Source of the DNA: Alphaproteobacteria bacterium
GTDB lineage: Bacteria > Pseudomonadota > Alphaproteobacteria > JAJTHO01 > CANGYM01
Assembly (NCBI GenBank): GCA_044372405.1
Contig: JBILRW010000004.1
Location: 7,171-71,170 of the forward strand
Direction of reading: 5' to 3'
DNA: 64,000 nt
Position 1 is the stretch's first letter. The number at the start of each line of letters is the position of its first letter. Positions 1,827-63,374 of the stretch are shown here, one piece after another. The position numbers and the translations under genes are program-made. The notes under the pieces are model-generated. The model saw only the letters and a list, made by a program, of their open reading frames with translations. It ran no database searches and was not told where the DNA came from.

Positions 1827-2906
1827 ATGACAAAAGACTGTTTTTTTTCTTTGGGATTGATGAGTGGCACGTCGGCGGATGGTATCGATGCGGCGCTGAT
1901 TCGCAGCGACGGGGAGGATTTTGTGGAAACATTGGATACGGCCTTTGTGGCCTATCCCGATGATTTTCGAAAACGGCTGCTTTCCTGCGCCCATGAGCAT
2001 CGGGAAGACGACGCTGTGCGCTCTGAATTTTCATATTGGAACCAGAAAGTTTGTGAGCAGATACTCACAAAAACAAAAGTGAGCGTTCACATGATCGCCA
2101 GCCATGGCCATACCGTGGATCATCGGCCTGATTTGGGATGGACAAAGCAAATGGATGATCCTGCTGCTTTGGCCCATCGGTTTTTCGTGCCTGTGGTGTC
2201 GGATTTTCGTCAAAACGATATGCAAAACGGCGGGCAAGGGGCGCCCTTGGTCCCCATCTATCATCGGGTGCGGGGGCGGGGCCATGCGAAACCGCTGGCC
2301 ATTGTGAATATCGGGGGGGTTAGCAACATTACCCTGATTGATCAAAGTGAACAAATGATCGCTTTTGATGCGGGGCCGGGCAATGCCCTGATGGATGATA
2401 TTTTACAAAAAAGCATCGGGGCGCGGTATGATCATGGGGGGACCCTGGCGCTTTCCGGCCAGGTTCACCAGGATCGGGCCGAGGCCCTGCTATCCGATCC
2501 TTTTTTTGCGCAAAAAGCCCCCAAGTCCCTGGATCGTAACCATTTCGCCCAGCGGGCCCAAAGTTTGGAGGGGCTGCCCTTGCCGGATCATCTGGCGACG
2601 CTGGCCTATGTCACGGCCCTGGCCATTGCCCGAGGTATCCTGATGCACCAGCCCCATTGCCAGGAATGTCTGCTGGTGGGGGGTGGGCGAAAAAATAAAG
2701 CGGTCGTTCACTTTTTATCAGGCCACCTGCCCTGCCCTGTCCGTGACGGCGATGCCGCAGGGTTTGACAGCGATTTTATGGAGGCCGAAGCCTTCGCCTA
2801 TCTGGGCATACGCAGCTTTTTGGGCCTGCCGTATTCCTTTCCCGAAACCACGGGGGTTCGTGTGCCTACGTGTGGGGGGGTGTGGACGTATCCGGGTGAC
2901 AGGTGA
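1827..2906 (+). CDS. anmK: anhydro-N-acetylmuramic acid kinase
   Basis: 359 aa; N-terminus GLMSGTSADGIDAALIR typical of AnmK; last codons GDR-stop are encoded by the heptad repeat. Confidence 0.85.
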   Translation: MTKDCFFSLGLMSGTSADGIDAALIRSDGEDFVETLDTAFVAYPDDFRKRLLSCAHEHREDDAVRSEFSYWNQKVCEQILTKTKVSVHMIASHGHTVDHRPDLGWTKQMDDPAALAHRFFVPVVSDFRQNDMQNGGQGAPLVPIYHRVRGRGHAKPLAIVNIGGVSNITLIDQSEQMIAFDAGPGNALMDDILQKSIGARYDHGGTLALSGQVHQDRAEALLSDPFFAQKAPKSLDRNHFAQRAQSLEGLPLPDHLATLAYVTALAIARGILMHQPHCQECLLVGGGRKNKAVVHFLSGHLPCPVRDGDAAGFDSDFMEAEAFAYLGIRSFLGLPYSFPETTGVRVPTCGGVWTYPGDR

Positions 2907-2939
2907 CAGGTGACAGGTGACAGGTGACAGGTGACAGGC
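2896..2939. repeat. tandem heptad array (GGTGACA)x6, single arm
   Basis: six perfect direct GGTGACA units read directly from sequence; same unit forms hairpin arms in the 23S IVSs and at 17.1, 38.1, 52.9 kb. Confidence 0.9.
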
Positions 2940-2992: not shown

Positions 2993-3406
2993 TTAAATCA
3001 CCACCCAATCCTCCCGCGTTAACCCCTTCACTTTGGAAAAATGGGTGTTGCTGGTGACCAGGATGGCCTCTGCCTGCAGGGCGTGGGCGGCAATCATCAG
3101 GTCCATGGCGCCGATTTGGGTTTCTTGGGGCGTTCCTTGGGTCTGCAGGTCATGGCGGATTTTGGCATAAAAGGGCGTGACGGCCTCACACCAGGGCAGG
3201 ACGTTCAAATAGGCCAGAAAGTCATCCAGAGCCCTTTGCATCAAACGGGGGGTGGGCCGCTTCTCAATCCCATGGCGTAACTCTGCCACCGTGATCACCG
3301 ACACAAGCACATCTTTCATGGGGATGGCCTGTAATTTTTCCAGAACGGACAGGGGCTTGGTGCGCATAATCGCGCTGCAGGTATCGGTATCTAAGAGGTA
3401 ACGCAT
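2993..3406 (-). CDS. vapC: PIN-domain toxin VapC
   Basis: MRYLLDTDTCSAIMR...VAELRHG...TSNTHFSKV PIN pattern; 1-nt gap to upstream antitoxin gene. Confidence 0.8.
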   Translation of the reverse strand: MRYLLDTDTCSAIMRTKPLSVLEKLQAIPMKDVLVSVITVAELRHGIEKRPTPRLMQRALDDFLAYLNVLPWCEAVTPFYAKIRHDLQTQGTPQETQIGAMDLMIAAHALQAEAILVTSNTHFSKVKGLTREDWVVI

Positions 3407-3407
3407 G

Positions 3408-3635
3408 TTAAAACACACCCCGCTCTTGAGGGGGATTATCCTGACGATTCGCCAGAAAATCCTGGGGTATGGCAGGCGGGGTGGCGAAATAATCGCTCCA
3501 CGACAGGGGCTTGGGGGATAAAATGACCTTATCACCCTCTTGGGTGATAAAAACCTCCTTGGCCGTAAAACGAAAGGCCTTGGGCAACCGCACCGCCTGA
3601 GAACCGCCGGATTGAAACACTTGGGTAATGGTCAT
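3408..3635 (-). CDS. vapB: AbrB/MazE-fold antitoxin VapB
   Basis: 75 aa MTITQVFQSGGSQAVRLPKAFRF..., SpoVT/AbrB swapped-hairpin antitoxin signature immediately upstream of vapC. Confidence 0.7.
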   Translation of the reverse strand: MTITQVFQSGGSQAVRLPKAFRFTAKEVFITQEGDKVILSPKPLSWSDYFATPPAIPQDFLANRQDNPPQERGVF

Positions 3636-3707: not shown

Positions 3708-4049
3708 CTAATGCAGCTCCCCAAGCCCAATAATTTCCTTGGGGGTATCGCCTGGGAATTCGGCGATGAGTTTCAGGTTTCCGCCCAGGGCCTCAACCAA
3801 TTCCCGTACCTTGGATACGGGCAGATCATTTTGGCGTTCCCATTTGGAAACTTGAAACTGTTGCACGCCCAGCAGCGTTGCCAGATCAATTTGGGTTTTG
3901 TGCAGGGATTTTCGTAACTTTTGCAGGGTGATTTCTTCGGCAATTAATTGCTCTGCCCGCTGGGCGATACGGCTTTGCTGGTCGGGGGAGAGTCCTGCGA
4001 TGATGTCGTTTAGGTTGACGGGCATGAGCAGGCTCCTTTCATTCATCAC
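3708..4049 (-). CDS. XRE-family HTH protein, HigA-like antitoxin (apparently orphan)
   Basis: 113 aa with HTH segment QKLRKSLHKTQIDLATLLGVQQFQVSKWE; no toxin ORF upstream, where a palindromic element sits instead. Confidence 0.55.
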   Translation of the reverse strand: MMNERSLLMPVNLNDIIAGLSPDQQSRIAQRAEQLIAEEITLQKLRKSLHKTQIDLATLLGVQQFQVSKWERQNDLPVSKVRELVEALGGNLKLIAEFPGDTPKEIIGLGELH

Positions 4050-4108
4050 AAATATATCATAATCAGAATATATTGAAAATGGGATAATCTATCACGGTCA
4101 GCAAAAAC

Positions 4109-4230
4109 AGGACTTACGCAGAACCTTTGTCATTGCGAGCGCAGCGAAGCAATCCAGGAAGGCCGCCACTGGAAAGACTGGATTGCCACGCCTCCTGCGG
4201 AGGCTCGCAATGACGTTGGGCGCAAGTCCT
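4109..4230. repeat. type-1 palindromic element (RPE-like), copy 1
   Basis: aggacttacgcagaac-gtcattgcgagc...ctggattgccacgcctcctgcggaggctcgcaatgacg...cgcaagtcct; terminal inverted repeats plus internal palindrome; 9 related copies in window. Confidence 0.85.
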
Positions 4231-4236
4231 GAGGCC

Positions 4237-7155: not shown

Positions 7156-7197
7156 GGGCGGGGAAAAAATCGTTTTGTGTCACTGTATTCCTTCAGA

Positions 7198-7316
7198 ACT
7201 TAGGCAGAACCTTCGTCATTGCGAGCGAAGAGAAGCAATCCAGAAACGCCGATACCAGAAAGACTGGATTGCCACGCCTCCTACGGAGGCTCGCAATGAC
7301 GTTCTGCGTAAGTCCT
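7198..7316. repeat. type-1 palindromic element, copy 2
   Basis: cgtcattgcgagcgaagagaagcaatccag...ctggattgccacgcctcctacggaggctcgcaatgacgttctgcgtaagtcct between fabZ and tRNA-Arg. Confidence 0.85.
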
Positions 7317-7397
7317 ATCCTTAGTCCCATACCAGATTATCATGGGGGGGACAAATGGTTTGTGGGGGCGTGCAGGGCTGTTTATTTTTGAAAAACC

Positions 7398-9369: not shown

Positions 9370-9372
9370 TCC

Positions 9373-9491
9373 GGAGGACGGAGGACAGAAGACCGAGGAC
9401 GGAATTTGTTTTGATCCTTTCAAGTGTTCAAAGGAATCTTTCCGCCCCTCCTCTGTCTTCTGTCCTCTGTCCTCCGTCCTGTCCTCCGTCC
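9373..9491. terminator. long GGACRG-repeat hairpin between argS and tyrS, terminator-like
   Basis: arm ggaggacggaggacagaagaccgaggacgga and complementary arm cctcctctgtcttctgtcctctgtcctccgtcc flank a ~45-nt loop directly after argS stop. Confidence 0.6.
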
Positions 9492-9527
9492 TTGCATCCC
9501 TAAAAAATGCTGATAGACTCGGGGCTT

Positions 9528-14848: not shown

Positions 14849-14900
14849 GGTGATGATGGCCAAGGGATTTTATAAAGCCTGTGGGGCACCTCTATTAGCC

Positions 14901-14990
14901 GTCATTGCGAGCGCAGCGAAGCAATCCAGAAAGGCTGCTGTTCCCGGAAACCCTGGATTGCTTCGTCGCGTTGCTCCTTACAATGACGAA
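14901..14990. repeat. type-1 palindromic element, copy 3 (degenerate second arm)
   Basis: gtcattgcgagcgcagcgaagcaatccag...ctggattgcttcgtcgcgttgctccttacaatgacgaaaaa. Confidence 0.8.
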
Positions 14991-15026
14991 AAATTGGGGT
15001 TATTATGTAGAGGTTTTGAGCTGATT

Positions 15027-16914: not shown

Positions 16915-16929
16915 GCCCCGTTGGGTCAG

Positions 16930-17257
16930 AAAAGGCGGGGTCGGGGCAGCAGGATTTGTCCCCCGGGTCAAGGGCGAGACGCCAAAAAAGTTGCGTAGCA
17001 AAGCCCCGAAGGGGCGGTCTTTTTTGGTGCGAGGCGAAGCGGACCCTTGAGGCGGGGGACAAATTCTGCTGGGTGGGAGCCTTTTCCTTGTGGGCCGAAC
17101 GCGGCTCCCGCCCCCACATTCAGGTAACAGGTATCAGGTTGCAGGTAACAGAAAACCCCGTCCTCTGGGGCTTGTTATTTCAAGGATACGTCTTGCTCTA
17201 CTTTTTTTCCTGTCACCTGTCACCTGTCACCTGTCACCTGATTCACCCCGCCACGTT
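16930..17257. repeat. ~325-bp composite element copy A (conserved 190-bp core plus heptad-repeat hairpin)
   Basis: ~90 percent identical to 37874-38197; hairpin arms caggtaacaggtatcaggttgcaggtaacag (17120-17150) and cctgtcacctgtcacctgtcacctgtcacctg (17208-17239); internal long-range pairing cagcaggatttgtcccc with ggggacaaattctgctg. Confidence 0.85.
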
Positions 17258-17355
17258 TCTGAAAAAAAACCGCTTGTCTTTCCGCAAGACTTTCTCAACA
17301 TCTTTGCTATAAAGTGGGGGGCAACACCCGCATCGCCACAACCAAGGACTGTATT

Positions 17356-18579: not shown

Positions 18580-18804
18580 GCGATTTAATTGTCCGTCATT
18601 CCGGACAAAATGAGCGAAGCGAGTGCAGAGCCGGAATCCAGCGCAACTGTCAAAAGGCCCAGCCTTTTGCCGGTATATTTTTGAAAAACAAAGAACAAAA
18701 CGCCTCGCGTTTTGGCATATGTGCTGGATCCCGGATCGGCGCTCACTGCGTTCGCTGGTCCGGGATGACGAAAAACATTAATTTAGTGGACAATTAAATC
18801 GACC
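18580..18804. mobile_element. type-2 MITE-like element, copy 1 (core 18594-18770)
   Basis: 13-bp terminal inverted repeats cgtcattccggac / gtccgggatgacg; internal 80 bp is the reverse complement of the internal part of the copy at 60128-60305; nested in an outer 14-bp inverted repeat cgatttaattgtcc. Confidence 0.85.
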
Positions 18805-19784: not shown

Positions 19785-19823
19785 AATTTACCGGGTTTGG
19801 AGGGAAAGTAAATAAGATACCAA

Positions 19824-20035
19824 GGTCATTCCATAAACCCGCTTTATATTCTGGGAAGAATGGCGTTGAGATGGCGATTAACGGGGCAGAATTGCAGCAG
19901 ACTTTAAGTGAGTGCATGGTGGGAGAGCCGCCCATTCTCACGCTGAGCATTGATGGCAAAACGCTACGTGGTTCTAAGTCTTATGAGCACCCTGCCACGC
20001 ACTGCGTGAGTATTTTTTGCCATGAATGAACGGCG
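19824..20035 (+). mobile_element. ISAs1-family IS remnant (one end plus internal transposase fragment)
   Basis: ORF fragment ...LSECMVGEPPILTLSIDGKTLRGSKSYEHPATHCVSIFCHE matches the ISAs1-family transposase (H-repeat protein) segment IAIDGKTLRxSYD...AIHxVSAF; terminus ggtcattccataaacccgctttatattctgggaagaatgg shared with 23443-23547. Confidence 0.55.
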
Positions 20036-23442: not shown

Positions 23443-23547
23443 GGTCAGGGTCATTCCATAAACCAGGATTAGACGAGGAATCCGATGGCTGTGGAGGTCA
23501 ACACCATTCTTCCCAGAATGTAAAGCGGGTTCATTGAATGACCCTGA
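23443..23547. mobile_element. 105-bp palindromic IS-end-derived element (solo ISAs1-like terminus pair)
   Basis: gggtcattccataaacc...ggttcattgaatgaccc termini inverted; internal segment is the reverse complement of the IS end at 19824-19895. Confidence 0.5.
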
Positions 23548-23640
23548 TAAGACACTGGATCTTTTTTTGCGCTTTCTGCAAAAGGTGTATAGGATCACCC
23601 GCATTCAGAAGCCATCCCACAAACAAAAAAGGACCCAAGC

Positions 23641-24210: not shown

Positions 24211-24226
24211 AAGGCCCCTCTCAAAA

Positions 24227-24331
24227 CCTCAATGTTTCGTCTTTGCGAGCCTCCGTAGGAGGCGTGGCAATCCACTCTTTCCTTTGTCGGCCTTTCTGGA
24301 TTGCTTCGCTGCGCTCGCAATTGACGTTCTG
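24227..24331. repeat. type-1 palindromic element, copy 4
   Basis: cgtctttgcgagcctccgtaggaggcgtggcaatcca...ctggattgcttcgctgcgctcgcaattgacgttctgcgtaagtcct. Confidence 0.85.
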
Positions 24332-24865: not shown

Positions 24866-24995
24866 GGCACCTCTAAAAACCCCCAATTTTTCGTCATTGC
24901 AAGTCGCAACGCGACGAAGCAATCCAGGGTTTTCGGGGGCTGTGGCCTTTCTGGATTGCTTCGCTGCGCTCGCAAAGACGGTTTTTAGAGGTGCC
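24866..24995. repeat. type-1 palindromic element, copy 5 (both arms of gaagcaatccag type, outer IR ggcacctctaaaaac)
   Basis: tttcgtcattgcaagtcgcaacgcgacgaagcaatccag...ctggattgcttcgctgcgctcgcaaagacggtttttagaggtgcc. Confidence 0.8.
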
Positions 24996-25086
24996 CTTTC
25001 TGATGAACACCCCGATGATGAACACCCCGACTGGACAATGTTTTGCCGCCGGGATAGGGTAGACGAGACGATTGAGTAAGGTCCCC

Positions 25087-32060: not shown

Positions 32061-32180
32061 GGATCTAAAACCCTCAATTTTTCGTCATTGCGAGCCTCCG
32101 TAGGAGGCGTGGCAATCCAGGATTTCGGGAGCTGTAGCTTTTCTGGATTGCTTCGCTGCGTTCGCAAAGACGGTTTAAGA
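32061..32180. repeat. type-1 palindromic element, copy 6
   Basis: ccctcaatttttcgtcattgcgagcctccgtaggaggcgtggcaatccag...ctggattgcttcgctgcgttcgcaaagacgg. Confidence 0.85.
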
Positions 32181-37873: not shown

Positions 37874-38197
37874 GAAAAGGCGGGGCGGGGCAGCAGGATT
37901 TGTCCACCGGGTCAAGGGCGAGACGCCAAAAAAGTTGCGTAGCAAAGCCGCGCAGCGGCGGTCTTTTTTGGTGCGAGGCGAAGCGAACCCTTGAGGCGGT
38001 GGGCAAATTCTGCTGGGTGGGAGCCTTTTCCTTGTGGGCCGAACGCGGCTCCCGCCCCCACATTCAGGTAACAGGTTGCAGGTAACAGGTAACCCAGCCC
38101 TCTAGGGCTTGTTATTTCGCTGGTACGTCTTGTTCCACTCTTTTTTCCTGTTACCTGTTACCTGCAACCTGTTACCTGATTCACCCCGCCGCGTTTT
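37874..38197. repeat. ~325-bp composite element copy B
   Basis: ~90 percent identical to 16930-17257 including heptad hairpin arms 38065-38093 and 38147-38178. Confidence 0.85.
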
Positions 38198-41931: not shown

Positions 41932-42235
41932 CACACTCCCTGCTGGCGAGATTTTCAAATTCCGCCCAACTCATAAGGGGTGCAGGCCGGTCTGTGACAC
42001 AGTAAAAATATGATAACTGACTCTCAGTGAGGGTTAGGCACCCCACAAGCAGAGCCATCTGTTTCTGTGGTGTCTAGCACCAAAAACTGAGAAGCTGAGA
42101 ACAATCCTCAAGCGTAAATAAGAGCATCTGGTGGATGCCTTGGCGATTGCAGGCGATGAAGGACGTGCTAGGCTGCGATAAGCAGCGGGGAGGGGCCAAG
42201 ACCCTTTGATCCGCTGATTTCCGAATGGGGGAACC

Positions 42236-42335
42236 CACCTTTCAGGTGACAGGTGACGGGTGACAGGTAACAGGTTTTGCATTGCGCAGGCCTGTCACCT
42301 GATACCTGTAACCTGTCGCCTGATCTAGGTATTCT
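42236..42335 (+). other. 23S rRNA intervening sequence 1 (helix 9 position), heptad-repeat hairpin
   Basis: arms caggtgacaggtgacgggtgacaggtaacagg / cctgtcacctgatacctgtaacctgtcgcctg replace helix 9. Confidence 0.8.
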
Positions 42336-42729
42336 TTGGCTGAACACATAGGCCTTAGAAAGCAAACCCAGTGAACTGAAACATCTCAGTAGCTGGAGGA
42401 AAAGACATCAACCGAGATTCCGTAAGTAGTGGCGAGCGAACGCGGAACAGCCCAGTGCTCTCTCGAATGTAACTGGAACGACTTGGAAAAGTCGGCCATA
42501 GTGGGTGATAGCCCCGTACAGGTAAGAATAGAGAGAGACTCGAGTAGGGCGGGACACGTGAAATCCTGTCTGAACATGGGGGGACCACCCTCCAAGGCTA
42601 AATACTCGCAATCGACCGATAGTGAACCAGTACCGTGAGGGAAAGGCGAAAAGAACCCCCATAAGGGGAGTGAAATAGAACCTGAAACCGGATGCTTACA
42701 AGCAGTTGGAGCGGGCGCACCCGAGGGCT

Positions 42730-42860
42730 GCGCCCAGGTAACGGGTAGCAGGTAACAGGTAACAGGTAGAAACTTTCGGGTCATAAACTTTTGTTAAATT
42801 GATCTGAAATTTTTCTTCCTGTCACCTGTCACCTGTCACCTGTCACCTGGCCGCGCCCTC
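42730..42860 (+). other. 23S rRNA intervening sequence 2 (helix 25 position), heptad-repeat hairpin
   Basis: arms caggtaacgggtagcaggtaacaggtaacaggtag / cctgtcacctgtcacctgtcacctgtcacctgg with AT-rich 50-nt loop, at the helix-25 IVS site known from Salmonella. Confidence 0.8.
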
Positions 42861-43808
42861 CGGCGCGCCCGTGACAGCGTACCTCTTGTATAATGGGTCC
42901 GCGACTTAGTGTAGCAAGCAAGGTTAAGCCGATAGGTGGAGCCGAAGCGAAAGCGAGTGTGAATAGCGCGTTTAGTTTGCTGTATTAGACCCGAAACCAA
43001 GTGAGCTAACCATGGCCAGGCTGAAGGTTGGATAACACCAACTGAAGGGCCGAACCCACGTCTGTTGAAAAAGACGGGGATGAGCTGTGGTTAGGGGTGA
43101 AAGGCCAATCAAACTTGGAAATAGCTGGTTCTCCGCGAAAACTATTTAGGTAGTGCGTCAGACGAATACCATGGGGGGTAGAGCACTGAATCGGCTAGGG
43201 GGGCGCGAGCCTTACCAAACCGAATCAAACTCCGAATACCCATGAGTACTATCTGGCAGACAGGCATCGGGTGCTAAGGTCCGGTGCCGAGAGGGAAACA
43301 GCCCAGACCGCCATCTAAGGTCCCCAAGACTATGTTAAGTGGGAAAGGATGTGGGAAAGCCATGACAGCTAGGAGGTTGGCTTAGAAGCAGCCATCCTTT
43401 AAAGAAAGCGTAATAGCTCACTAGTCTAATCAAGCATTCCTGCGCCGAAGATGTAACGGGGCTCAAACATAGCACCGAAGATGCGGGCGCGCCTATGGCG
43501 CGCGGTAGCGGAGCGTTCCCTAAGCCGTCGAAGCAGTCCTGTCAGGGGCTGTGGAGGTATGGGAAGTGAGAATGCGGACATGAGTAGCGACAAACAGAGT
43601 GAGAGACTCTGTCGCCGAAAGCCCAAGGGTTCCTATCCAATGCTAATCAGGGTAGGGTTAGTCGATTCCTAAGGCGAGGCCGAAAGGCGTAGTCGATGGG
43701 AACACGGTTAATATTCCGTGACCTTTGGTCCGTGACGGATCGAAACGATTGTACTTTCTTATCGGATTGATAAGTGCAGTCCAACGGTTCCAGGAAATAA
43801 CGGACCAG

Positions 43809-44380
43809 CTTGGGATTGTTTAAGGGAAAAGAAAAAAGCACGCCAGAGGCGACGTGCTAGAAATTTATTCGTTGTTGCGTCGACGATCAATTTCGTCGAG
43901 TGCAGCGAATGTGATGCATCCTGGAAGCATCGAAATTGCCCCAGGAATGTTTAAAACAAAAAGAAAAAAGAATCTCCATCCTCCTTCAACAAGGATCATT
44001 TCTGCTCCTTGCTTTGGAAATAGGGAAATTCTGTCGGTTTTAAACTCCTTCTCCAGAAGAATTGCGGAGAAGTAAACAAAAAACACGACTGTAACTAAAG
44101 AAGAAACGACTAAATTTAGGCGTCTTTTTTTGTACTTATCCATGGTGTTAAGTTATTTAACTAAGGTTTATTTTGACATTATGCAGTGCAGTGCAGTGCA
44201 GTGCAGTGCAGTGACATTTGTCACATTACGAAAAATAATTTCCCTTAAACAATCCCAGGCGTTCAGGTGACAGGTAACGGGTAACAGGTGACAGGTTGTG
44301 GGTTACAGGTTATGGGTAGATTTTCTACCTATTTTCTGTTTCCTCTTCCTGTTACCTGTCTCCTGTTACCTGTTACCCGG
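43809..44380 (+). other. 23S rRNA intervening sequence 3 (helix 45 position), composite ~570 bp
   Basis: 19-bp inverted repeat cttgggattgtttaaggga / tcccttaaacaatcccagg bounds an AT-rich 410-bp module with a 92-codon ORF (43865-44143, minus) and a (GCAGT)5 microsatellite (44183-44207); followed by heptad hairpin 44263-44379. Confidence 0.8.
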
Positions 44381-44649
44381 ACAATGATCGTACCCGAAAC
44401 CGACACAGGTGGGCAGGTCGAGTAGACCAAGGCGCTTGAGAGAAGTATCCTGAAGGAACTCGGCAAATTGCTCCCGTAACTTCGGAAGAAGGGAGCCCGT
44501 CATGAAGGCAACTTTTTGGCGGGGTCACAAAAGAGGGGGTTGCGACTGTTTAACAAAAACACAGGACTCTGCGAAGTCGTAAGACGAAGTATAGGGTCTG
44601 ACGCCTGCCCGGTGCCGGAAGGTTAAGGAAGGATGTGCAAGCATTTGAC

Positions 44650-44729
<80 letters not shown>

Positions 44730-45170
44730 TGAATGGCGTAACGACATCCCCACTGTCTCCAGGATATACTCAGCGAAATTGAATTCCCCGTGAAGATGCG
44801 GGGTTCCCGCGGTCAGACGGAAAGACCCCGTGCACCTTTACTACAGCTTTACACTGGCTCTAGGAATATCATGTGTAGGATAGGTGGGAGACTTTGAAGC
44901 CTTGGCGCCAGCCAGGGTGGAGTCAACCTTGAAATACCACCCTTGATGTTTTTAGGGTCTAACCCAGGTCCGTGAATCCGGATCGGGGACCGTGTATGGT
45001 GGGTAGTTTGACTGGGGCGGTCGCCTCCCAAATGGTAACGGAGGCGCGCGAAGGTAAGCTCAGTACGGTCGGAAATCGTACGTCGAGTGCAATGGCATAA
45101 GCTTGCCTGACTGCGAGGCTGACAAGCCGAGCAGAGACGAAAGTCGGTCATAGTGATCCGGTGGTTCTTC

Positions 45171-45224
<54 letters not shown>

Positions 45225-45253
45225 AACGCCCAAGCGTCCACAGCGACGGCGTT

Positions 45254-45331
<78 letters not shown>

Positions 45332-45339
45332 TGGTACGT

Positions 45340-45380
<41 letters not shown>

Positions 45381-45688
45381 TGCCGTGGGTGTTTGATGAT
45401 TGAGAGGATTTGCCCCTAGTACGAGAGGACCGGGGTGAACGTACCTCTGGTGTACCGATTGTGGCGCCAGCCGCATCGTCGGGTAGCTATGTACGGAACG
45501 GATAACCGCTGAAAGCATCTAAGCGGGAAACCGGCCTCAAAACGAGTCATCGTAGAGCCGTAGTAGACCACTACGTTGATAGGTGGCGTGTGAAAGGGTG
45601 GTAACACCTGAAGCTAAGCCATACTAATCGCTCATCTCTCTTTTGGATTGTTCTCGCGTCTTATGTTTTAACAAAGACGCATCTCATG

Positions 45689-45736
45689 CACCACCGTACA
45701 GGTTGGGGGTCCCTCCACCCCCATCCTGTACGGTGG
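45689..45736 (+). terminator. stem-loop downstream of 23S rRNA (terminator-like)
   Basis: caccaccgtacagg ... cctgtacggtgg 12-bp stem followed by T-rich ttatcatattttt. Confidence 0.4.
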
Positions 45737-45786
45737 GGTCAGTTATCATATTTTTGCGGTGTTGCTTCACATTTTCTTCATGAAAA

Positions 45787-46134
45787 TTGCTGTTTATGAA
45801 ACTTTTTCACAAAAAGATTTTTCAAAAACCAAGTTACCGTATTCTTTTGGGTATTTTAGGTGTTGCCCTACTTATTTCTCTGTATTTTAGACATTTGTTT
45901 GTTTTTCCCCTCATGACTGCGACGATTGTTTTGCCGATCAGGGCTCCTTTCCTTTTGTTTTCTAAAAGTATCTCATTGTATGAAATGGCTGCTTTTGCTA
46001 ATTCTGTACTTTTAGGGTTGTGTTATGTGGCTTGGCGTAAACGCCGTCATGCGTGGTGGGTTGAGGTGCTTTGCGTTTTGGCTTTTTATCTGGCAATGGG
46101 GGCAGCCATTTTTAGTATGGGGAATATGACGTAG
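45787..46134 (+). CDS. hypothetical small membrane protein (AT-rich)
   Basis: 115 aa, three predicted TM helices; ORF plus flanks bounded by 31-bp direct repeats 45735-45765 and 46134-46164. Confidence 0.4.
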   Translation: MLFMKLFHKKIFQKPSYRILLGILGVALLISLYFRHLFVFPLMTATIVLPIRAPFLLFSKSISLYEMAAFANSVLLGLCYVAWRKRRHAWWVEVLCVLAFYLAMGAAIFSMGNMT

Positions 46135-46171
46135 GGGTCAGTTATCATGTTTTTGGTGTGTTGCAGGAAAG

Positions 46172-46646: not shown

Positions 46647-46886
46647 ATGATGCAGATAGGGGCTTTTGAGGCCAAAAATCGTTTTTCGGAAATTTTGCGC
46701 TGGGTTGCGGAGGGTGAGGAAGTCACCATAACCCGCCATGGTAAAGTCGTGGCCGTCATCATGGACCCTGAACAGGGGCGGACCCAAAAAGCCTCTCAGG
46801 CTTTTAGACAGTGGGAAGCGTTGGCAGGCAGCATCAAGGCAACCCCCGGCGAAATCGCCGCATGGGTGAAAGACGGTCGTCCATGA
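46647..46886 (+). CDS. Phd/YefM-family antitoxin
   Basis: MMQIGAFEAKNRFSEILRWVAEGEEVTITRHGKVVAVIM matches the Phd/YefM N-terminal fold; stop overlaps the downstream PIN toxin start (ATGA). Confidence 0.7.
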   Translation: MMQIGAFEAKNRFSEILRWVAEGEEVTITRHGKVVAVIMDPEQGRTQKASQAFRQWEALAGSIKATPGEIAAWVKDGRP

Positions 46887-47290
46887 ACCTTGTTTTGGAC
46901 AGCTCGGTTGTCTTATCGGCCTTGCTGGCGGATGAACAGGCGGAGTATGCGTCCTTGATTATTGGCCGGTTGAAGCGTTGCGAAGTGTATGGTGTTGTGC
47001 CGTCCCTGTTTTTTATGGAAGCCGCCAACGGCCTTCTTATGGCGCACCGACGAAAAAGGGTGGGTCAAGACACGTTGATTCTGCTGTTGCAAACCCTCTC
47101 CATCATGCCTTTTGAGAGGATCGAAACACCGGATATTTTGCAAACAACCGCGCTGGCGCAAAAACACACCCTTACCGTTTATGATGCCACGTACCTGTCC
47201 ATCGCTCTGCGTGGGGCTTTCCCGCTGGCGTCTTTGGATTCAGCCCTGCAAAAGGCAGCCCTGGCAGAGGGGATCTTTTATCAGCCCTAG
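46883..47290 (+). CDS. vapC: PIN-domain toxin VapC
   Basis: MNLVLDSSVVLSALLADE...VYDATYLSIAL...SLDSAL conserved acidic residues of the PIN fold. Confidence 0.8.
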   Translation: MNLVLDSSVVLSALLADEQAEYASLIIGRLKRCEVYGVVPSLFFMEAANGLLMAHRRKRVGQDTLILLLQTLSIMPFERIETPDILQTTALAQKHTLTVYDATYLSIALRGAFPLASLDSALQKAALAEGIFYQP

Positions 47291-47474: not shown

Positions 47475-48203
47475 TCACAACACCGGCCCTGTTCCCTGGC
47501 CAACGCCTGGGGGATTTTTGAGGGATTTTTGGATAAAGGCCAGGGCGTCTTCGGCGGCCTGGGGCAAAGAGAGTCCGCGCGCCAGTCCTGTGGCCAGAGC
47601 GCTGGAAAGAATACAGCCCGTACCATGGGTGTGACGGGTGGGGATGCGGGGGTGAGAAAAACGGGTTTCTTTGCCCCCTTCCCTTAACACATTCACGATC
47701 ATGGTGCCGTCTTCGTGTCCCCCCGTGATGAAAACAGCGGGGGCGTGAGACAGGGGGAGTAATGCGGCCTCTATGGTGTTGGGTGTCACGCAGGTGATGC
47801 GGGGCAGCAGGTCTTTTTTCAGGATAGACAGCCCGTCTTCATCAATGAGCGGGGCCCCATGACTGGCCCAGAGTATGGGATCCAGCACCACGGGACACGA
47901 AACCTGATCCAAAATTGTTACCAAACATCGGGCAAGGGCGCCGCTGCCCATCATGCCGATTTTGATGGCTTGGGGCGGTGTATCCGCCAGCAGGGTTTCC
48001 ACTTGATCCTGAAACAGCGCGGCGTCCGTGGGCACAATCCGTCCCACCGTCAACGTGTTTTGCACCGTTTGCGCCGTGATCACCGCCAGGGCGTAGCCCC
48101 CCAGGGCGTGAATGGTTTTCACATCCACCAAAACGCCCGCGCCGCCGCCGGGATCAAAGCCCGCCAGGGACAAAACAACGGGGGGTTTGGGGGATTCAGA
48201 CAT
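47475..48203 (-). CDS. thiD: hydroxymethylpyrimidine/phosphomethylpyrimidine kinase
   Basis: VLSLAGFDPGGGAGVLVDVKTIHALGGYALAVITAQTVQNT ribokinase-fold ThiD signature. Confidence 0.85.
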   Translation of the reverse strand: MSESPKPPVVLSLAGFDPGGGAGVLVDVKTIHALGGYALAVITAQTVQNTLTVGRIVPTDAALFQDQVETLLADTPPQAIKIGMMGSGALARCLVTILDQVSCPVVLDPILWASHGAPLIDEDGLSILKKDLLPRITCVTPNTIEAALLPLSHAPAVFITGGHEDGTMIVNVLREGGKETRFSHPRIPTRHTHGTGCILSSALATGLARGLSLPQAAEDALAFIQKSLKNPPGVGQGTGPVL

Positions 48204-49131
48204 TGTCCCCCTGGGGTAAAACAGCGCTTTGGCCCAGCGGGTGACAGGTTTGCAGGGTATCCCGCAAATGATCATCGGGAATGTGGGTATAAATCTGGGT
48301 GGTGGAGAGATCTTCATGACGCAAAATGGCCTGGAGTGTGGGCAGATCGACGCCCCGATGCAGCAAATGCGTGGCCAAAGAATGCCGCAAAACGTGGGCC
48401 GACAGGGGGGGAAGGCCCACCTTGGCCGCTAAATTTTTAAGTTTCAGATCCAGCTGCTGGCGGGTGACGTGCCCCTGGCGACTGCGAGCGGGAAACAAAA
48501 ACGGGCTTTGGGGGCGGGATAAAAAATGGGGACGGACGGCCTGATAGGCCCGCAAAGCCTCTGCCGTCCCGACGGTTAGGGGCAAAAGGCGTTCTTTGCC
48601 CCCCTTTCCCGTGACCATGAGAGAACTCAGATCTTTGGACAGGGCCGAAAGCGGCAGCGAAACCAGCTCACTGGCGCGAAGGCCAACGCCATACAGAAGC
48701 TCCAGCATGGCCAGCAGGCGTTTGTCCTCTGGCGTTAAGGCCCGCTGCAACCAGGCAAAAAGACAGGCCACGTGGTCTTCGGTTAAATAATGGGGGATGG
48801 GGCGGGGTTGCGCGGGGGTTTTCAGGGATTTTGTGGGGTTATCGGGCCGGATGCCTTCCGTTTGTAAAAACAAAAAAAATTGACGCAGAGCCGTAATGGC
48901 GCGGCTGCGGCTTCGGGGGCTAAGGGAGAGGGCCTGAACATAGGCGATGATGTCCTCAGCCGTAACAGATTCCATGGGTTTTTGTGTTTTTTCCAAAAAA
49001 AAGCCAATATCCCGACGATACGCCATAAGGGTATTGGGCGCAGCATTGCGTTCAATGGCCATCATGTCCAAAAAACGCCCCAAGAAGGTCGGCGATACCG
49101 GCGCAGCAAAATCAATGATCTCCGTGGTCAT
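48196..49131 (-). CDS. xerD: site-specific tyrosine recombinase XerC/XerD type
   Basis: N-terminal SAM-like domain (FLDMMAIERNAAPNTLMAYRRD) and catalytic C-terminus with ...HVLRHSLATHLLHRGVDLPTLQAILRHEDLSTTQIYTHI (R-H-R-Y). Confidence 0.85.
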   Translation of the reverse strand: MTTEIIDFAAPVSPTFLGRFLDMMAIERNAAPNTLMAYRRDIGFFLEKTQKPMESVTAEDIIAYVQALSLSPRSRSRAITALRQFFLFLQTEGIRPDNPTKSLKTPAQPRPIPHYLTEDHVACLFAWLQRALTPEDKRLLAMLELLYGVGLRASELVSLPLSALSKDLSSLMVTGKGGKERLLPLTVGTAEALRAYQAVRPHFLSRPQSPFLFPARSRQGHVTRQQLDLKLKNLAAKVGLPPLSAHVLRHSLATHLLHRGVDLPTLQAILRHEDLSTTQIYTHIPDDHLRDTLQTCHPLGQSAVLPQGDNV

Positions 49132-49459
49132 GATCCCCTGCCCCCGATACCAAACGAAAGGTCCGGCTGCAATACGGACAGACGATTTGCCTTTGAGATC
49201 CCATGGCCAGATAAACCTTTGGATGTCCCAAGGGCCCGCCGCCGCCATCACATGAGGGACGCGGGGTTTTGACATCAATAACCTCGAAGGCATCCGCGTT
49301 TGGAGGGGTCAGGGGTGAAACGGATGGGATCATGATACGGGGTTTCCTGGATTTTTCCTGTTTTTTATAAAGGGGTTTGGGGGAAAAATCAATGGGAGGG
49401 TTTAAGTGTTTGTTTTTAGCCTTTCCTTAAAGAATTGGCTTTTATAGTCATAGGATTCG

Positions 49460-49578
49460 GGACTTAGGCAAAACCTTGCGTCTGGCGAGCGCAGCGAAGC
49501 AATCCAGAAATGCCGATACCGGAAAAACTGGATTGCCACGCCTCCTACGGAGGCTCGCAATGACGTTTTGCGTAAGTC
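49460..49578. repeat. type-1 palindromic element, copy 7
   Basis: ggacttaggcaaaaccttgcgtctggcgagcgcagcgaagcaatccag...ctggattgccacgcctcctacggaggctcgcaatgacgttttgcgtaagtc; flanked by direct ATAGGATT. Confidence 0.85.
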
Positions 49579-49619
49579 ATAGGATTGTTTTGGGAAGCCA
49601 TAGAGGAACCACAACCACC

Positions 49620-52667: not shown

Positions 52668-52720
52668 TTGCATGATTCATTTTATAAAGACCCTGCCGTT
52701 AAAAAGCAAGATGATTGTGG

Positions 52721-52836
52721 AATTTACGCAGAACGTCATTGCGAGCCTCCGTAGGAGGCGTGGCAATCCAGTCTTTTGTGGCGGCATTTCTGGGTTGCTT
52801 CGCTGCGCTCGCAATGACGAACACTTTGCGTAAGTC
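52721..52836. repeat. type-1 palindromic element, copy 8
   Basis: aatttacgcagaacgtcattgcgagcctccgtaggaggcgtggcaatccag...gggttgcttcgctgcgctcgcaatgacgaacactttgcgtaagtc. Confidence 0.85.
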
Positions 52837-57571: not shown

Positions 57572-58903
57572 ATGCGTATCCGGTTGTGTTTTTTTTCCTG
57601 GGTGATCCTGATGATGGTTTTGGGGCTAACCCCCGCCCATGCGGAACTGGCGGTGGATATTAACCAGGGAACATTTAAGCCCATACCCATGGCCTTTGTG
57701 CCGTTTTCGGTGACGCAGGGGCAGGATGCGACGCTGGCGGAGAACATTCGCCGGGTGATTACCGCCGATTTGGACAGCACGGGACTGATTGATCCTGTGA
57801 ATCAAATGGCCTTTCCTGAGGATCTGGATGTGTTTGAGCGCGTTCCCGATTTTGCCAGCTGGCGGGCGGTTTCGGTTCAGCTGATCTTAACGGGCAAGGT
57901 CGAGCGCACCAGCACCAGTGCCATTAAGGTTCATTTTAAACTGTATGATGCGCTGCGTTCGGAAACGCTGCTGTATCTCAGCCTGACCACCCCCGTGGAC
58001 AACTGGCGCCGCTTGGCCCATTTGATTGCGGATCAGATTTATGAACGCATTACGGGGGAATCGGGCTATTTTGATTCCCGCATTGCCTTTGTGGCGGAAA
58101 GTGGTCCCCCCAAACGGGTTCAAAAACGCCTGGCGGTGGTGGATTCCGACGGGGAGAATCTGCGGTATCTCAGCGATGGTCGGAACTTGGTCCTGACCCC
58201 GCGTTTCTCGCCCAAAGAACCCATCATCACCTATTTGGAATACAAGGGCAACGGAACGCCCCAGGTGTATTTTCACCACATTGATACCGGCCGCAAAGAA
58301 ATTTTGGGACAATTTCCGGGCATGACCTTTGCCCCCCGATTTGCGCCGGATGGCAAGACCTTGGCCTTTAGTATGGAGGTGGGGGGGAATTCGGATGTTT
58401 ATAAATACGATATTCGCTCTCGCCAGAAAACGCGGCTGACCAATCATCCGGGCATTGATACTTCGCCGTCGTTTTCGCCCGATGGTAGCAAAATTGTCTT
58501 TAACTCGGACCGGGGCGGCACCCAGCAGCTGTATATCATGTCGGCCAATGGGGGCCCTGCCGAGCGCATTACCTTTGGTGAAGGCCGCTACACCACCCCC
58601 GTTTGGTCACCCCGGGGGGATTACATTGCCTTTACCAAATCACGTCATGGGACGTTTTATATCGGCGTGATTAAACCGGATGGGTCGGGCGAGCGATTAC
58701 TCACCAGCAGCTTTTTGGATGAAGGCCCCACCTGGGCCCCCAACGGTCGGGTCATTATGTTCTTTCGCGAAAAGCCTTTATCGCGGGGACAGAAGTCTTC
58801 TGAGCTTTTCACCGTGGATTTAACGGGCCGGAACCTGCGTAAAATACCCCTGGCGGTGCGGGCGTCCGATCCGGCCTGGTCGGGGCTGAATCCCAATTAT
58901 TAA
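57572..58903 (+). CDS. tolB: Tol-Pal system periplasmic protein TolB
   Basis: signal peptide, N-terminal TolB domain then WD40-like beta-propeller repeats (YFSPDGSKIVF, PVWSPRGDYIAF); no tolQRA or pal adjacent. Confidence 0.85.
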   Translation: MRIRLCFFSWVILMMVLGLTPAHAELAVDINQGTFKPIPMAFVPFSVTQGQDATLAENIRRVITADLDSTGLIDPVNQMAFPEDLDVFERVPDFASWRAVSVQLILTGKVERTSTSAIKVHFKLYDALRSETLLYLSLTTPVDNWRRLAHLIADQIYERITGESGYFDSRIAFVAESGPPKRVQKRLAVVDSDGENLRYLSDGRNLVLTPRFSPKEPIITYLEYKGNGTPQVYFHHIDTGRKEILGQFPGMTFAPRFAPDGKTLAFSMEVGGNSDVYKYDIRSRQKTRLTNHPGIDTSPSFSPDGSKIVFNSDRGGTQQLYIMSANGGPAERITFGEGRYTTPVWSPRGDYIAFTKSRHGTFYIGVIKPDGSGERLLTSSFLDEGPTWAPNGRVIMFFREKPLSRGQKSSELFTVDLTGRNLRKIPLAVRASDPAWSGLNPNY

Positions 58904-58917
58904 TGCGGGGAGGGCCT

Positions 58918-60075
58918 ATGGTCCGATTGGTCGCGTTCCTCTGGATATTAGTGTTAGGCAGCGCGAGCATGGCCCTGGCCGAAATCCCCATTGCCGCCGC
59001 GGGCCCCATGACCGGTCCCTATGCCAGCATTGGGGAGCAACTGCGGCGCGGGGCCAGTATGGCGGTAGAGGACATCAACGCCGCGGGGGGTCTGTTGGGT
59101 CAACCCCTGTCCCTGCGGATTATGGATGATGCGTGTGATCCGAAGCAGGCGACGTTGGTGGCGTCTCAACTGGCCAATGATCATTATACGTTTGTGGCGG
59201 GGCATTTTTGTTCCAGTGCGTCCATTCCGGCGTCCAATGTTTATAACGATGCGGGGATCATTATGGTCTCTCCGGCGTCCACATCCCCCACCCTCACCGA
59301 GCGTAATCTGACCAATATCTTTCGGGTGTGTGGCCGCGATGATCAGCAGGGGGTTATTGCTGCCGATTATATCCGCCGTCATTTTGGGGATCAGAGGCTG
59401 GCCATTATTCACGATAAAACCTCTTACGGCAAAGGCCTGGCCGATGTCACCAAAAAGGCATTGAATGAGGCCGGCCTTCAGGAAATTCTCTATGAAGGCA
59501 TCACCACGGGCGAGCGGGACTTTACGGCCCTGATTACCCGTATGAAATACCATAATATCGGTGTTTTGTACGTGGGGGGATACTTTACAGAGGCCGCTTT
59601 GCTCCGCCGCCAGGCCCATGATCAGGGCCTGAATATCCCGCTGATTTCTGGCGATGCGCTGGTGACGCGGGAATACTGGACCATTGCGGGGAAAACGGGG
59701 GAAGGCACGCTGATGACCTTTAACCCCGACCCTCGAAAAAACCCAGGCGCGGCCAAGGTGGTGCAGGCCTTTCGCGACCAAGGCTATGAGCCCGAGGGCT
59801 ATACGCTCTATAATTACGCCGGTGTTCAGGTGTATGCTGAGGCCGTCAAACGCGCTGGCACCACGGATGCCAAAGCCGTTCGTGATGTTATGCACGGCGG
59901 GACCTTTGATACCTTACTGGGCCCCATTACCTTTGATGCCAAGGGCGATGTGACCAAGCCGCAATATGTGGTTTATGAATGGTCCAAGGGGGAGTATGCG
60001 GAGATTGAGGATGGGGGACGGGGGACAGAGGACGGAAGACAGAGGACGGAAGACGGAGAAAAGAAGGGGAAGTAA
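58918..60075 (+). CDS. branched-chain amino acid ABC transporter substrate-binding protein (LivK/LivJ family)
   Basis: signal peptide, type-I periplasmic binding fold; last ~20 residues EDGGRGTEDGRQRTEDGEKKGK are encoded by a GGACRG repeat array. Confidence 0.8.
   Translation: MVRLVAFLWILVLGSASMALAEIPIAAAGPMTGPYASIGEQLRRGASMAVEDINAAGGLLGQPLSLRIMDDACDPKQATLVASQLANDHYTFVAGHFCSSASIPASNVYNDAGIIMVSPASTSPTLTERNLTNIFRVCGRDDQQGVIAADYIRRHFGDQRLAIIHDKTSYGKGLADVTKKALNEAGLQEILYEGITTGERDFTALITRMKYHNIGVLYVGGYFTEAALLRRQAHDQGLNIPLISGDALVTREYWTIAGKTGEGTLMTFNPDPRKNPGAAKVVQAFRDQGYEPEGYTLYNYAGVQVYAEAVKRAGTTDAKAVRDVMHGGTFDTLLGPITFDAKGDVTKPQYVVYEWSKGEYAEIEDGGRGTEDGRQRTEDGEKKGK
60015..60057. repeat. GGACRG-type tandem repeat array (single arm)
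   Basis: ggacgggggacagaggacggaagacagaggacggaagacggag, same unit family as the hairpin at 9373-9491. Confidence 0.8.
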
Positions 60076-60127
60076 GGCGAGGGCTTTGTTTTATAACAAT
60101 TCACTTTCAAAAAAATACGAATCTCAT

Positions 60128-60305
60128 CGTCATCCCGGACCAACGAGCGTTAGCGAGTGCCGAGCCGGGATCCAGCACATACGCCAAAACGCGAAGCGTT
60201 TTGTTCTTTGTTTTTAAAGAGTATATCGGCAAAAGGCTGCGCCTTTTGACAGTGGCGCTGGATACCGGATCTGCGTTCGCTAACGCTCACTTGTCCGGCA
60301 TGACG
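60128..60305. mobile_element. type-2 MITE-like element, copy 2
   Basis: termini cgtcatcccggac / gtccggcatgacg; internal region is the reverse complement of the copy-1 interior. Confidence 0.85.
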
Positions 60306-60349
60306 AAATGTGAGGGTTTTTTTTCACTGTGAATGGGTATACGTTGTTT

Positions 60350-62640: not shown

Positions 62641-63374
62641 GCCAAGACCTCCAAGATTGTCTCTGCGCACCAGGCCGGATGGGTCAGGGGCAACAGATGA
62701 CTGTGGCCCGGATGGATTGCCACCGTTTGGGCGTGGCTCGCCCAGGGGTAGGTGATGATGGGATCGTTAGCGGAGGTTAAGGCACAGAAAATGGGCGGGG
62801 GAGAATTGGATTTATCCACAACGTCATTGCGAGCCTCCGCAGGAGGCGTGGCAATCCAGTCTTTCGGCTCGCTGCATTTCTGGATTGCTTCGCTACGCTC
62901 GCAATGACGAGGGTTATGTGTAAATCCTTGGGAAACCTCTTTTTGCATGGCTTTCAAGGCGTCCTGCAGTATGTTTTGGGGCGTGATGCACGGATAGGGT
63001 CCCCCAGCCCTTTCCTGAAAATCCCGTAACACCTGGGTGGGATTTTTCTCAAAACCCCGCGCCATGGCCTGTAAAACCCGTAGGGGAATCCCCCCGGGAT
63101 TTTGGGGACTGGCCACAAAACAGGGGGCGCTGTTAATGGCAATCCATCGGGCATGAGGGAGCGCCTGATACCCCGAAAAAAAGCCATAAGAATGCCCGAT
63201 CCACAGGTCGTAATCCTCATGTCTCATCCCTAAAAAATCCCAGTTTTCCATAGCTTCACAGTGCCAGGACGGCGGCAGATACCGGATCATCTCCCCCCAT
63301 ATGCCGGGGCCATAGCCCCAACCGTGCACCAGCAACACCCGCATACTATGCCCCAACATAACTGGCGCGACCAT
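62637..63374 (-). CDS. bioH: BioH-like alpha/beta-hydrolase (pimeloyl-ACP methyl ester esterase) carrying an in-frame type-1 element insertion
   Basis: LLVHGWG, nucleophile elbow GHSYG, SAPCF, then after the insert ANDPI (Asp) and HPGHSHLLP (His) collinear with E. coli BioH; residues CERSEAIQKCSEPKDWIATPPAEARNDV are the translated repeat. Confidence 0.65.
   Translation of the reverse strand: MVAPVMLGHSMRVLLVHGWGYGPGIWGEMIRYLPPSWHCEAMENWDFLGMRHEDYDLWIGHSYGFFSGYQALPHARWIAINSAPCFVASPQNPGGIPLRVLQAMARGFEKNPTQVLRDFQERAGGPYPCITPQNILQDALKAMQKEVSQGFTHNPRHCERSEAIQKCSEPKDWIATPPAEARNDVVDKSNSPPPIFCALTSANDPIITYPWASHAQTVAIHPGHSHLLPLTHPAWCAETILEVLA
62808..62927. repeat. type-1 palindromic element, copy 9, inside bioH-like CDS
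   Basis: cgtcattgcgagcctccgcaggaggcgtggcaatccag...ctggattgcttcgctacgctcgcaatgacga; no stop codon in the host reading frame. Confidence 0.85.

Follow-up and report, generated by a model that had tools for sequence, protein, structure and literature searches.

Introduction

The REP sequences of gamma-proteobacteria, with units of 20-40 nt, are mobilized as doublets (REPINs) by RAYT transposases, and the related BIMEs are mosaics. Correia elements have 26-bp inverted repeats, a TA target duplication and an IHF site, while the BOX elements of Streptococcus pneumoniae are modular (boxA-boxB-boxC). Here, we describe an intergenic element of about 330 bp that is present in two copies (A1 and A2) in a 64-kb stretch of an alphaproteobacterial genome (contig JBILRW010000004.1; hereafter the window, whose numbering is used throughout) and that has counterparts in the metagenomes of related organisms (their contigs are labeled L and proteins P). 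We interpret it as a lineage-restricted family of non-coding, composite palindromic repeats that are non-autonomous and mosaic in the manner of REPINs, BIMEs, BOX and Correia elements, a reading to which we assign a probability of roughly 0.55. The family has not been described previously, its lineage is that of uncultured freshwater alphaproteobacteria, and it is a new family of a known kind, the composite palindromic intergenic repeats.

The resemblance to REPINs and BIMEs is manifold. The element is also a non-coding intergenic palindrome, often located just past stop codons, in which an inverted doublet folds as one long hairpin; it is a mosaic of modules, lacks a target-site duplication, and its hairpins are kept up by compensatory changes. 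However, its unit is much larger than that of REP (about 165 nt), no GTAG-like 5' tetranucleotide precedes it, its copy number is apparently lower, and no RAYT or other Y1 transposase was found among the window open reading frames (ORFs) tested. As a REPIN, then, it has the inverted doublet but neither the unit size nor, among the window ORFs, the association with a RAYT. Measured against the definition of miniature inverted-repeat transposable elements, it has terminal inverted repeats and occupies multiple unrelated loci, but it does not have the target-site duplication. With Correia/NEMIS and ERIC sequences it shares the small size (100-350 bp), the non-autonomous nature, the terminal inverted repeats and predicted transcript stems that exceed 20 bp, could be cut by RNase III and may affect the termination and stability of flanking mRNAs. 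Nevertheless, it shows no TA duplication, no 26-bp inverted repeats, no IHF site and no sequence similarity to Correia elements. BOX elements are likewise intergenic, with conserved end modules, exchangeable or variable inner modules and a strong predicted structure, but they are unrelated in sequence, come from another phylum and have modules in direct order, not in a tail-to-tail inverted dimer.

Two discrete copies in intergenic DNA

The two window copies are located as follows.

16929..17258, + strand: copy A1, whole element, between the stop codon of trkA (16914) and the conserved promoter region of icd (from about 17283)
37874..38197, + strand: copy A2, whole element, between the stop codon (37841) of a cystathionine beta-lyase-like gene and fliD (38381)

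The initial annotation of this DNA had reported two copies with about 90 percent identity, and both alignments agree with it: A1 and A2 are 89.7% identical over 339 nt by BLASTN and 90% identical in a MAFFT alignment. The head motif GAAAAGGCGGGG matches exactly at 16929 and 37874 and has no other occurrence in the window; a third copy of the core was found there neither by BLASTN with a word size of 7 nor with an nhmmer profile. Both copies are intergenic and run in the same direction as the neighboring genes; A1 starts 15 nt and A2 33 nt past a stop codon, and the gap contains no other terminator. Since the similarity is lost no more than about 8 nt from each end, where the flanks are unrelated, A1 and A2 are discrete units and not parts of a segmental duplication.

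Anatomy of the element

Each window copy is made of three hairpins enclosed by short terminal inverted repeats, running from the head, GAAAAGGCGGGG(T)CGGGG, through hairpins 1, 2 and 3 to the right end, TTCACCCCGCC(R)CGTTT. The parts of both copies are the following.

16929..16946, + strand: head or left end of A1, GAAAAGGCGGGGTCGGGG, invariant in all copies; its GGCGGGG pairs with CCCCGCC of the right end to give the terminal inverted repeat
16947..17071, + strand: hairpin 1 of A1 (about 125 nt), outer stem CAGCAGGATTTGTCCCCCGGGTCAAGGG / CCCTTGAGGCGGGGGACAAATTCTGCTG, apex variable
17003..17025, + strand: terminator-like motif in the hairpin 1 apex of A1, GCCCCGAAGGGGC GGTC TTTTTT
17071..17113, + strand: hairpin 2 of A1, GGGTGGGAGCC ... 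GGCTCCCGCCC
17120..17241, + strand: hairpin 3 (heptad hairpin) of A1, (CAGGTAA-type) x4.4, loop of about 55 nt, (CCTGTCA) x4.6
17242..17258, + strand: right end of A1, TTCACCCCGCCACGTTT, a remnant of the head of an inverted unit (U', see below)
37891..38015, + strand: hairpin 1 of A2
38015..38057, + strand: hairpin 2 of A2
38064..38179, + strand: heptad hairpin of A2
38180..38197, + strand: right end of A2

The long-range complementarity previously noticed in the core is real and belongs to hairpin 1, in which CAGCAGGATTTGTCC.../...GGACAAATTCTGCTG pair as 28-nt arms that are 89% complementary; a G.U pair in its outer stem is kept in all copies. In copies of the window type, this hairpin has in its apex a GC hairpin with T6 behind it on the + strand, and the terminator-like stem covaries in A2 and in the relative L023 (GCCGC/GCGGC). 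Hairpin 2 has its 5' arm and the first part of its loop within an invariant block of 31 nt, CAAATTCTGCTGGGTGGGAGCCTTTTCCT. [quoted passage not shown] The stem is a perfect one of 30 bp in A2, and the loop in A1 contains a small terminator-like hairpin (17156-17170). The window copies retain 11-13 nt of the terminal inverted repeat, and GGCGGGG/CCCCGCC are paired in every fold. Compared with shuffled sequences, A1 as a whole folds strongly on both strands (-164 kcal/mol and z = -7.8 on the + strand, -168 kcal/mol and z = -9.8 on the - strand).

Copies in related organisms

The element is a multi-copy dispersed repeat. Its six-frame translation, used as a protein query, and one DNA scan of metagenomes led to related copies at five further loci of relatives.

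L003, L005 and L006: one locus, 5S-tRNA-[element]-DnaJ
L008: in the contig's host portion, downstream of the terminator of an OmpA-family gene
L023: downstream of a tRNA
P0146: downstream of rplA, known from a protein record, no DNA
L017: at a contig end, upstream of a gene, hairpin 2 first and hairpin 1 absent

The translated query gave P0001 (on L003) and then P0143, P0145 and P0146; a further candidate, P0144, was rejected as an ORF of a eukaryotic satellite. A second metagenome scan yielded the true copies L005 and L006 along with L004 and L007, which are chance matches in coding or unrelated DNA, and a 22-mer from the hairpin 2 loop had no match in the first of the two scans. Similarly, L002, retrieved from a genome collection with a 23-mer of the core, is a chance match inside a trmL-like coding sequence. 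In a viral collection searched with four patterns, L008 was the sole match, and this IMG/VR contig (4737-10740) is host chromosome (OmpA-family gene, rpsA, holB) followed by a prophage integrated beside a tRNA (DUF2924, serine recombinase, LuxR and lysozyme genes). The element, which is of type B (see below), lies in the host part.

The organisms closest to that of the window have isocitrate dehydrogenases (IDH) 93% and 85% identical to its own and beta-lyases 99%, 82%, 80% and 71% identical; L008 and the relative with the 82% beta-lyase come from the same JGI sample. The 99%-identical strain (L021) has copy A2. Three independent assemblies (L001, L021 and L017) break inside the element, which is typical of multi-copy repeats.

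The relatives' copies share with A1 and A2 both ends, the foot of hairpin 1 and hairpin 2's 5' arm with the 31-nt block. The third hairpin is non-heptad in every readable copy from the relatives (L003/L005/L006, L008, L023 and P0146). Type B copies have an inverted paralogue of hairpin 1 as their right half: this half matches the core profile on the opposite strand with E values of about 1e-10 to 1e-11 (70% over 304 nt), and in the minimum free energy structure the whole element folds into one giant hairpin (-184 to -205 kcal/mol). Their terminal inverted repeat is longer, AAAAG-GCGGGG(T)CGGGGC against AAACG(Y)GGCGGGG-CGGGAC in the reverse-complemented right end, or about 17 of 20 nt, and they are devoid of the terminator-like apex. 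Given this inverted third hairpin in the relatives and the folding of the whole as one hairpin, the ancestral element was a tail-to-tail dimer of a hairpin unit of about 165 nt. Moreover, L023 and P0146 combine a hairpin 1 apex of the window type with a B-type third hairpin and L017 starts at hairpin 2, so the modules assort independently between copies.

Conservation and structural constraint

Several blocks are invariant in all copies: the head through CAGCAGGATT, then GGGTCAAGGGCGAG, GGCGAAGCG.ACCC, the 31-nt block described above and CCCCGCC.CG at the right end. Conservation is highest in the head and the tail, each an inverted repeat of the other. For comparison, the intergenic DNA upstream of icd is unalignable with that of the relative with 85% IDH identity.

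In an alignment of five copies, both sides have changed in 8 of the 59 pairs and 95.6% of the cells are paired; none of 500 shuffles reached the covariation observed. The same process is visible within the genome. Of the 7 substitutions that separate the cores of A1 and A2, two fall at unpaired positions, one converts U-A to U.G, and the remaining four amount to two compensatory pairs, C-G to A-U in one case and C-G to G-C in the other; only 0.037 compensatory pairs are expected by chance (P of about 7e-4). Hairpin 1 is maintained by compensatory change, both within this genome and across the relatives, which bears out the earlier view that the core is not neutral DNA.

In all six copies, the + strand also gives the more stable core, by 5-18 kcal/mol. 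This strand bias, together with the G.U pair kept in the outer stem, points to a strand-specific single-stranded fold, a description that RNA and single-stranded DNA would fit alike.

Dispersal of the element and alternative explanations

Several lines of evidence favor a dispersed non-autonomous repeat. The copies have discrete bounds and lie in unrelated contexts at the two window loci and at no fewer than five loci of the relatives, the conserved blocks coincide with mutually inverted ends, the modules are shuffled and assemblies break inside the element. In addition, the genome has at least three other palindromic repeat families, one of them with an insertion polymorphism between L005 and L006. 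The orientation can be read in six copies, four of which are co-directional with the upstream gene and two opposite to it; the latter (the L003 group and P0146) are antisense to all their neighbors.

Under this reading, the basic unit (U) is a hairpin of about 165 nt whose head and tail are conserved (GAAAAGGCGGGG(T)CGGGG and GGGTGGGAGCC, respectively). The full ancestral element consists of U and an inverted paralogue, U', joined tail to tail, with the tails forming hairpin 2 and the heads the terminal inverted repeat. To spread, the element would be copied into intergenic DNA as a distinct unit, through an enzyme provided in trans. Given the missing target duplication, the strand-biased structure tolerant of G.T pairs and the REPIN-like dimer, this enzyme may be one that recognizes hairpins of single-stranded DNA, of the RAYT or IS200-type HUH kind. 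Hairpin modules would be exchanged between copies, and in the window organism the interior of U' would have been replaced once by a heptad hairpin, after which the variant was copied to at least two loci. A1 and A2 agree in their heptad hairpin and its loop (84% identical), which means that the replacement was a single event and that the derived element was then copied within the genome. The heptad hairpin itself would be a fast-evolving simple-sequence palindrome that has proliferated in this genome, filling 23S sites and also lying at the 3' ends of genes. As for the host, the GC hairpin and T6 in the hairpin 1 apex probably end the trkA and beta-lyase transcripts, and RNA that reads through would have stems exceeding 20 bp, open to cleavage by RNase III. 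Stems of such length are what this enzyme needs, and it cuts the NEMIS repeats of Neisseria (De Gregorio et al. 2003, cited in PMC4524435).

Some observations weigh against a repeat of this kind. Inspection by eye revealed no target-site duplication or flanking direct repeat at A1, A2, L006, L003, L008 or L023. There is no pair of filled and empty sites; the synteny of both window sites is broken in every recovered relative, and although relatives without the element beside icd and beside the beta-lyase gene do exist, the gene order differs there. None of the 20 window ORFs tested is a transposase or RAYT, and the one tyrosine recombinase in the window (48196-49293) is unlinked to the element. 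The copy number appears modest, with only the two end partials of L017 in about 73 kb of unselected DNA from relatives. The best-conserved block is central as well as terminal, and the strand-biased G.U pattern would also fit a function as RNA. Finally, A1 and A2 are 10% divergent and yet have kept their structure, which could reflect selection for a host function instead of transposition.

Such a function is the basis of the alternative that survives best, although we regard it as rather unlikely: a cis-acting RNA element of 3' untranslated or intergenic regions, selected by the host as a terminator, an insulator or an RNase III/stability module and only rarely duplicated. The position of A1 and A2 agrees with it, close behind a stop codon, co-directional and with no intervening terminator, as do the orientation of four of the six copies that can be oriented and the greater stability of the core on the + strand in all copies. 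Furthermore, compensatory changes have accumulated after the duplication of A1 and A2, and the apex GC hairpin and its T6 are kept in A1, A2 and L023 with a compensatory change in the stem. However, a working apex motif would halt + strand transcription ahead of the 3' arm of hairpin 1, which would then be seldom transcribed, and it is precisely this arm that covaries. Type B copies do without the terminator-like apex, the copy in L008 follows a gene that already has a strong terminator of its own, and the copies of the L003 group and P0146 are antisense to all neighbors. Module shuffling and assembly breaks, for their part, are products of a repeat family.

It is more doubtful still that the element is a multi-copy, independently transcribed structured small RNA, with variable tips that behave as expansion segments, like the heptad insertions of the 23S rRNA. 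Hairpin 1 covariation and the strand-biased stability are in line with this idea, and so are the conserved frame with variable tips and the invariance of blocks of 28-31 nt among organisms whose housekeeping proteins are just 71-85% identical to those of the window. On the other hand, a sigma-70 scan found no conserved promoter upstream of either end, where the flanks are unrelated, and neither strand has a terminator at the element's 3' end, the terminator-like motifs being internal instead. Rfam gave no match even at E <= 10 and nothing at the gathering threshold (the best score below it was 24.8 bits against a cutoff of 86, for an unrelated miRNA model). The conserved blocks are the mutually inverted head and tail, as expected of recognition ends, and the architecture of type B is that of a dimeric palindrome. 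The initial annotation had leaned toward a structured RNA with an RNase III-type stem in common with the rRNA. Of this, the stem stands, as the heptad stems measure 28-33 bp and are of the same type, but the case for a free-standing RNA gene is weak, with no conserved promoter, copies in both orientations, no Rfam family and a terminator-like motif in the apex.

The last alternative, the duplication of a short gene for a protein or of a piece of a known gene, is effectively refuted: several frames are open across the core on both strands, with ORFs of 84 and 174 amino acids that start MWGREPRS..., and metagenome gene callers have annotated such ORFs (P0001, P0143, P0145 and P0146), but no open frame matches a Pfam family at threshold, the called ORFs change frame between copies through indels, the substitutions are compensatory in the hairpin and not synonymous, and all six frames are nearly open, as expected of GC-rich palindromic DNA.

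Heptad hairpins in the 23S rRNA gene and elsewhere

Bacterial 23S intervening sequences are found at helices 9, 25 and 45 and are excised by RNase III. The STRR sequences of cyanobacteria are short tandemly repeated heptanucleotide arrays, of period 7, in non-coding DNA. Features that can be compared with both are present in the window.

42238..42332, + strand: 23S insertion at helix 9, replacing E. coli 132-149, heptad hairpin throughout
42713..42870, + strand: 23S insertion at helix 25, replacing E. coli 541-554, heptad hairpin most like hairpin 3 of A1
44260..44380, + strand: heptad hairpin closing the 3' end of the 23S domain III insertion (43745-44375)
2895..2938, + strand: solitary heptad array, (GGTGACA) x6.3, overlapping the anmK stop codon
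52856..52893, - strand: solitary heptad array, (GTGACAG)n on the gene strand, overlapping the coaBC stop codon

The first two insertions resemble known intervening sequences in their location at the classical sites of helices 9 and 25, where they form extra stem-loops in place of the helix tips, and in their long extended stems, of a kind removed by RNase III; the site of the domain III insertion is non-classical. The heptad hairpins have in common the start TTCAGGTRA, the end ACCTGA and a T-rich run ahead of the 3' arm, and their stems are 28-33 bp long in A1, A2 and the 23S insertions. The likeness is closest between hairpin 3 of A1 and the helix-25 insertion, whose 3' arms are 97% identical over 39 nt and which show the same periodic A.C mismatch. 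Still, the 325-bp element itself lies outside any rRNA gene, and what the 23S gene shares with it is the heptad hairpin type only. The proposal that the element as such can land in rRNA finds no support: core and heptad hairpin are separate modules, because the relatives carry another third hairpin and heptads are frequent only in the window organism. We counted 10 CAGGTRA-type arrays in the window, 1 in L008 and none in about 67 kb of L009, L010, L016 and L018.

Heptad arrays are general in this genome and not limited to hairpins of this sequence. One (60009-60058) falls in the part of the gene at 58903-60075 that codes for the C-terminus, and (GGTGACA)n has, on the gene strand, TGA in all three frames. 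A hairpin made of a different heptad (GGAGGAC / GTCCTCC; 9372-9492), with more than 20 bp, -64 kcal/mol and z = -8.8, sits in the 137-nt gap separating two co-directional genes. The arrays are similar to STRRs in their period of 7 and their scattering in non-coding DNA, but they belong to another lineage, often form the paired inverted arms of 28-33-bp hairpins and also occur inside an rRNA gene.

BLAST searches of plasmids and phages gave no match to the core and matched the heptad arrays alone. The (CCTGTCA)n array on its own matches arrays on plasmids of Anabaena (NC_019773.1 and NC_019429.1) as well as of Enterobacter and Klebsiella (NZ_CP056130.1 and CP064824.1), with 88-95% identity across all plasmid matches; since such arrays are carried by cyanobacterial and enterobacterial plasmids, the heptad is not unique to this lineage. 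As a hairpin, it is a separate, lineage-specific palindrome of simple repeats that also forms 23S insertions and arrays at the 3' ends of genes.

In the literature we searched, there was no direct precedent for intervening sequences derived from heptads or repeats, and none for one hairpin type common to intervening sequences and intergenic repeats. The nearest analogue of hairpin repeats that are also inside rRNA genes is provided by the mitochondrial double-hairpin elements of chytrids and fission yeasts, which are GC-rich, presumed mobile and mostly intergenic, with some copies inside rnl and rns and a striking conservation across species (PMC10085805). However, these elements are organellar and much shorter, and in our case only the heptad hairpin type is found in rRNA.

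A tentative possibility is that the heptad hairpin is an actively propagating module, by template switching or gene conversion between arrays, that inserts at existing hairpin tips, and that rRNA intervening sequences arise from the repeat pool of the genome itself. If so, the tips targeted would be those of mobile repeats, of hairpins at gene 3' ends and of 23S rRNA helices, and a single RNase III pathway would process both the 330-bp elements and the 23S insertions.

Regarding the 23S gene itself (42108-45648), the domain III insertion is AT-rich, about 629 nt long, and contains (TGCAG)6.4 at 44182-44213 and an antisense ORF of 92 amino acids (43865-44143, - strand) that appears membrane-like and has no Pfam match. 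The gene stands alone, with no 16S or 5S rRNA gene in the window, and in the relatives the 5S gene is beside a tRNA and apart from any 23S gene (L003 5801-5915, L005 441-555 and L006 2377-2491), which suggests that the lineage's rRNA genes are not linked to one another.

Other repeats and neighboring genes

A palindromic repeat of about 125 nt, with GTCATTGCGAGCGCAGCGAAGCAATCCAG and CGTCATTGCGAGCCTCCGTAGGAGGCGTGGCAATCC, is far more common than the 325-bp element, with nine copies in the window, and is also found in relatives at 85-93% identity.

4106-4231, 7192-7317, 14884-15004, 24219-24330, 24876-24996, 32064-32176, 49456-49581, 52715-52836 and 62802-62928, and in L005 199-328: copies of the repeat of about 125 nt

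A third palindromic family, of about 180 nt, begins with CGTCATCCCGGAC (18594-18770 and 60127-60306; L005 719-905; L008 1-104). In L005, it fills the spacer that separates a tRNA from the right end of the element, a spacer of 55 nt in L006 and L003, and so represents an insertion polymorphism; it adjoins the right end of the element in L008 too.

Two simpler repeats were also detected in the window: a 52-nt inverted repeat, 88% complementary, at 19818-19869 and 23498-23549, which encloses about 3.6 kb, and a 36-nt direct repeat at 45730-45765 and 46129-46164, just downstream of the 23S gene. Near repeat-rich stretches, and downstream of the 23S gene, are genes for two PIN-domain proteins, a helix-turn-helix protein and the tyrosine recombinase mentioned above (2993-3535, 3708-4049, 46811-47290 and 48196-49293), which may represent toxin-antitoxin pairs and a small integrated element.

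Significance

The element family shows on a small scale how the non-coding repeats of an uncultured lineage have evolved in modules while their structure was preserved. Its practical effect is felt in metagenomes, where it leads to assembly breaks and spurious ORF calls. Within one genome, the same type of hairpin is found in four settings, namely as 23S insertions, as a module of a repeat, as hairpin arms or lone arrays and as overlaps with the stop codons of housekeeping genes. Where bacterial 23S intervening sequences come from has long been uncertain, and whether they are recruited from the repeat pool of the genome becomes directly testable across close relatives.

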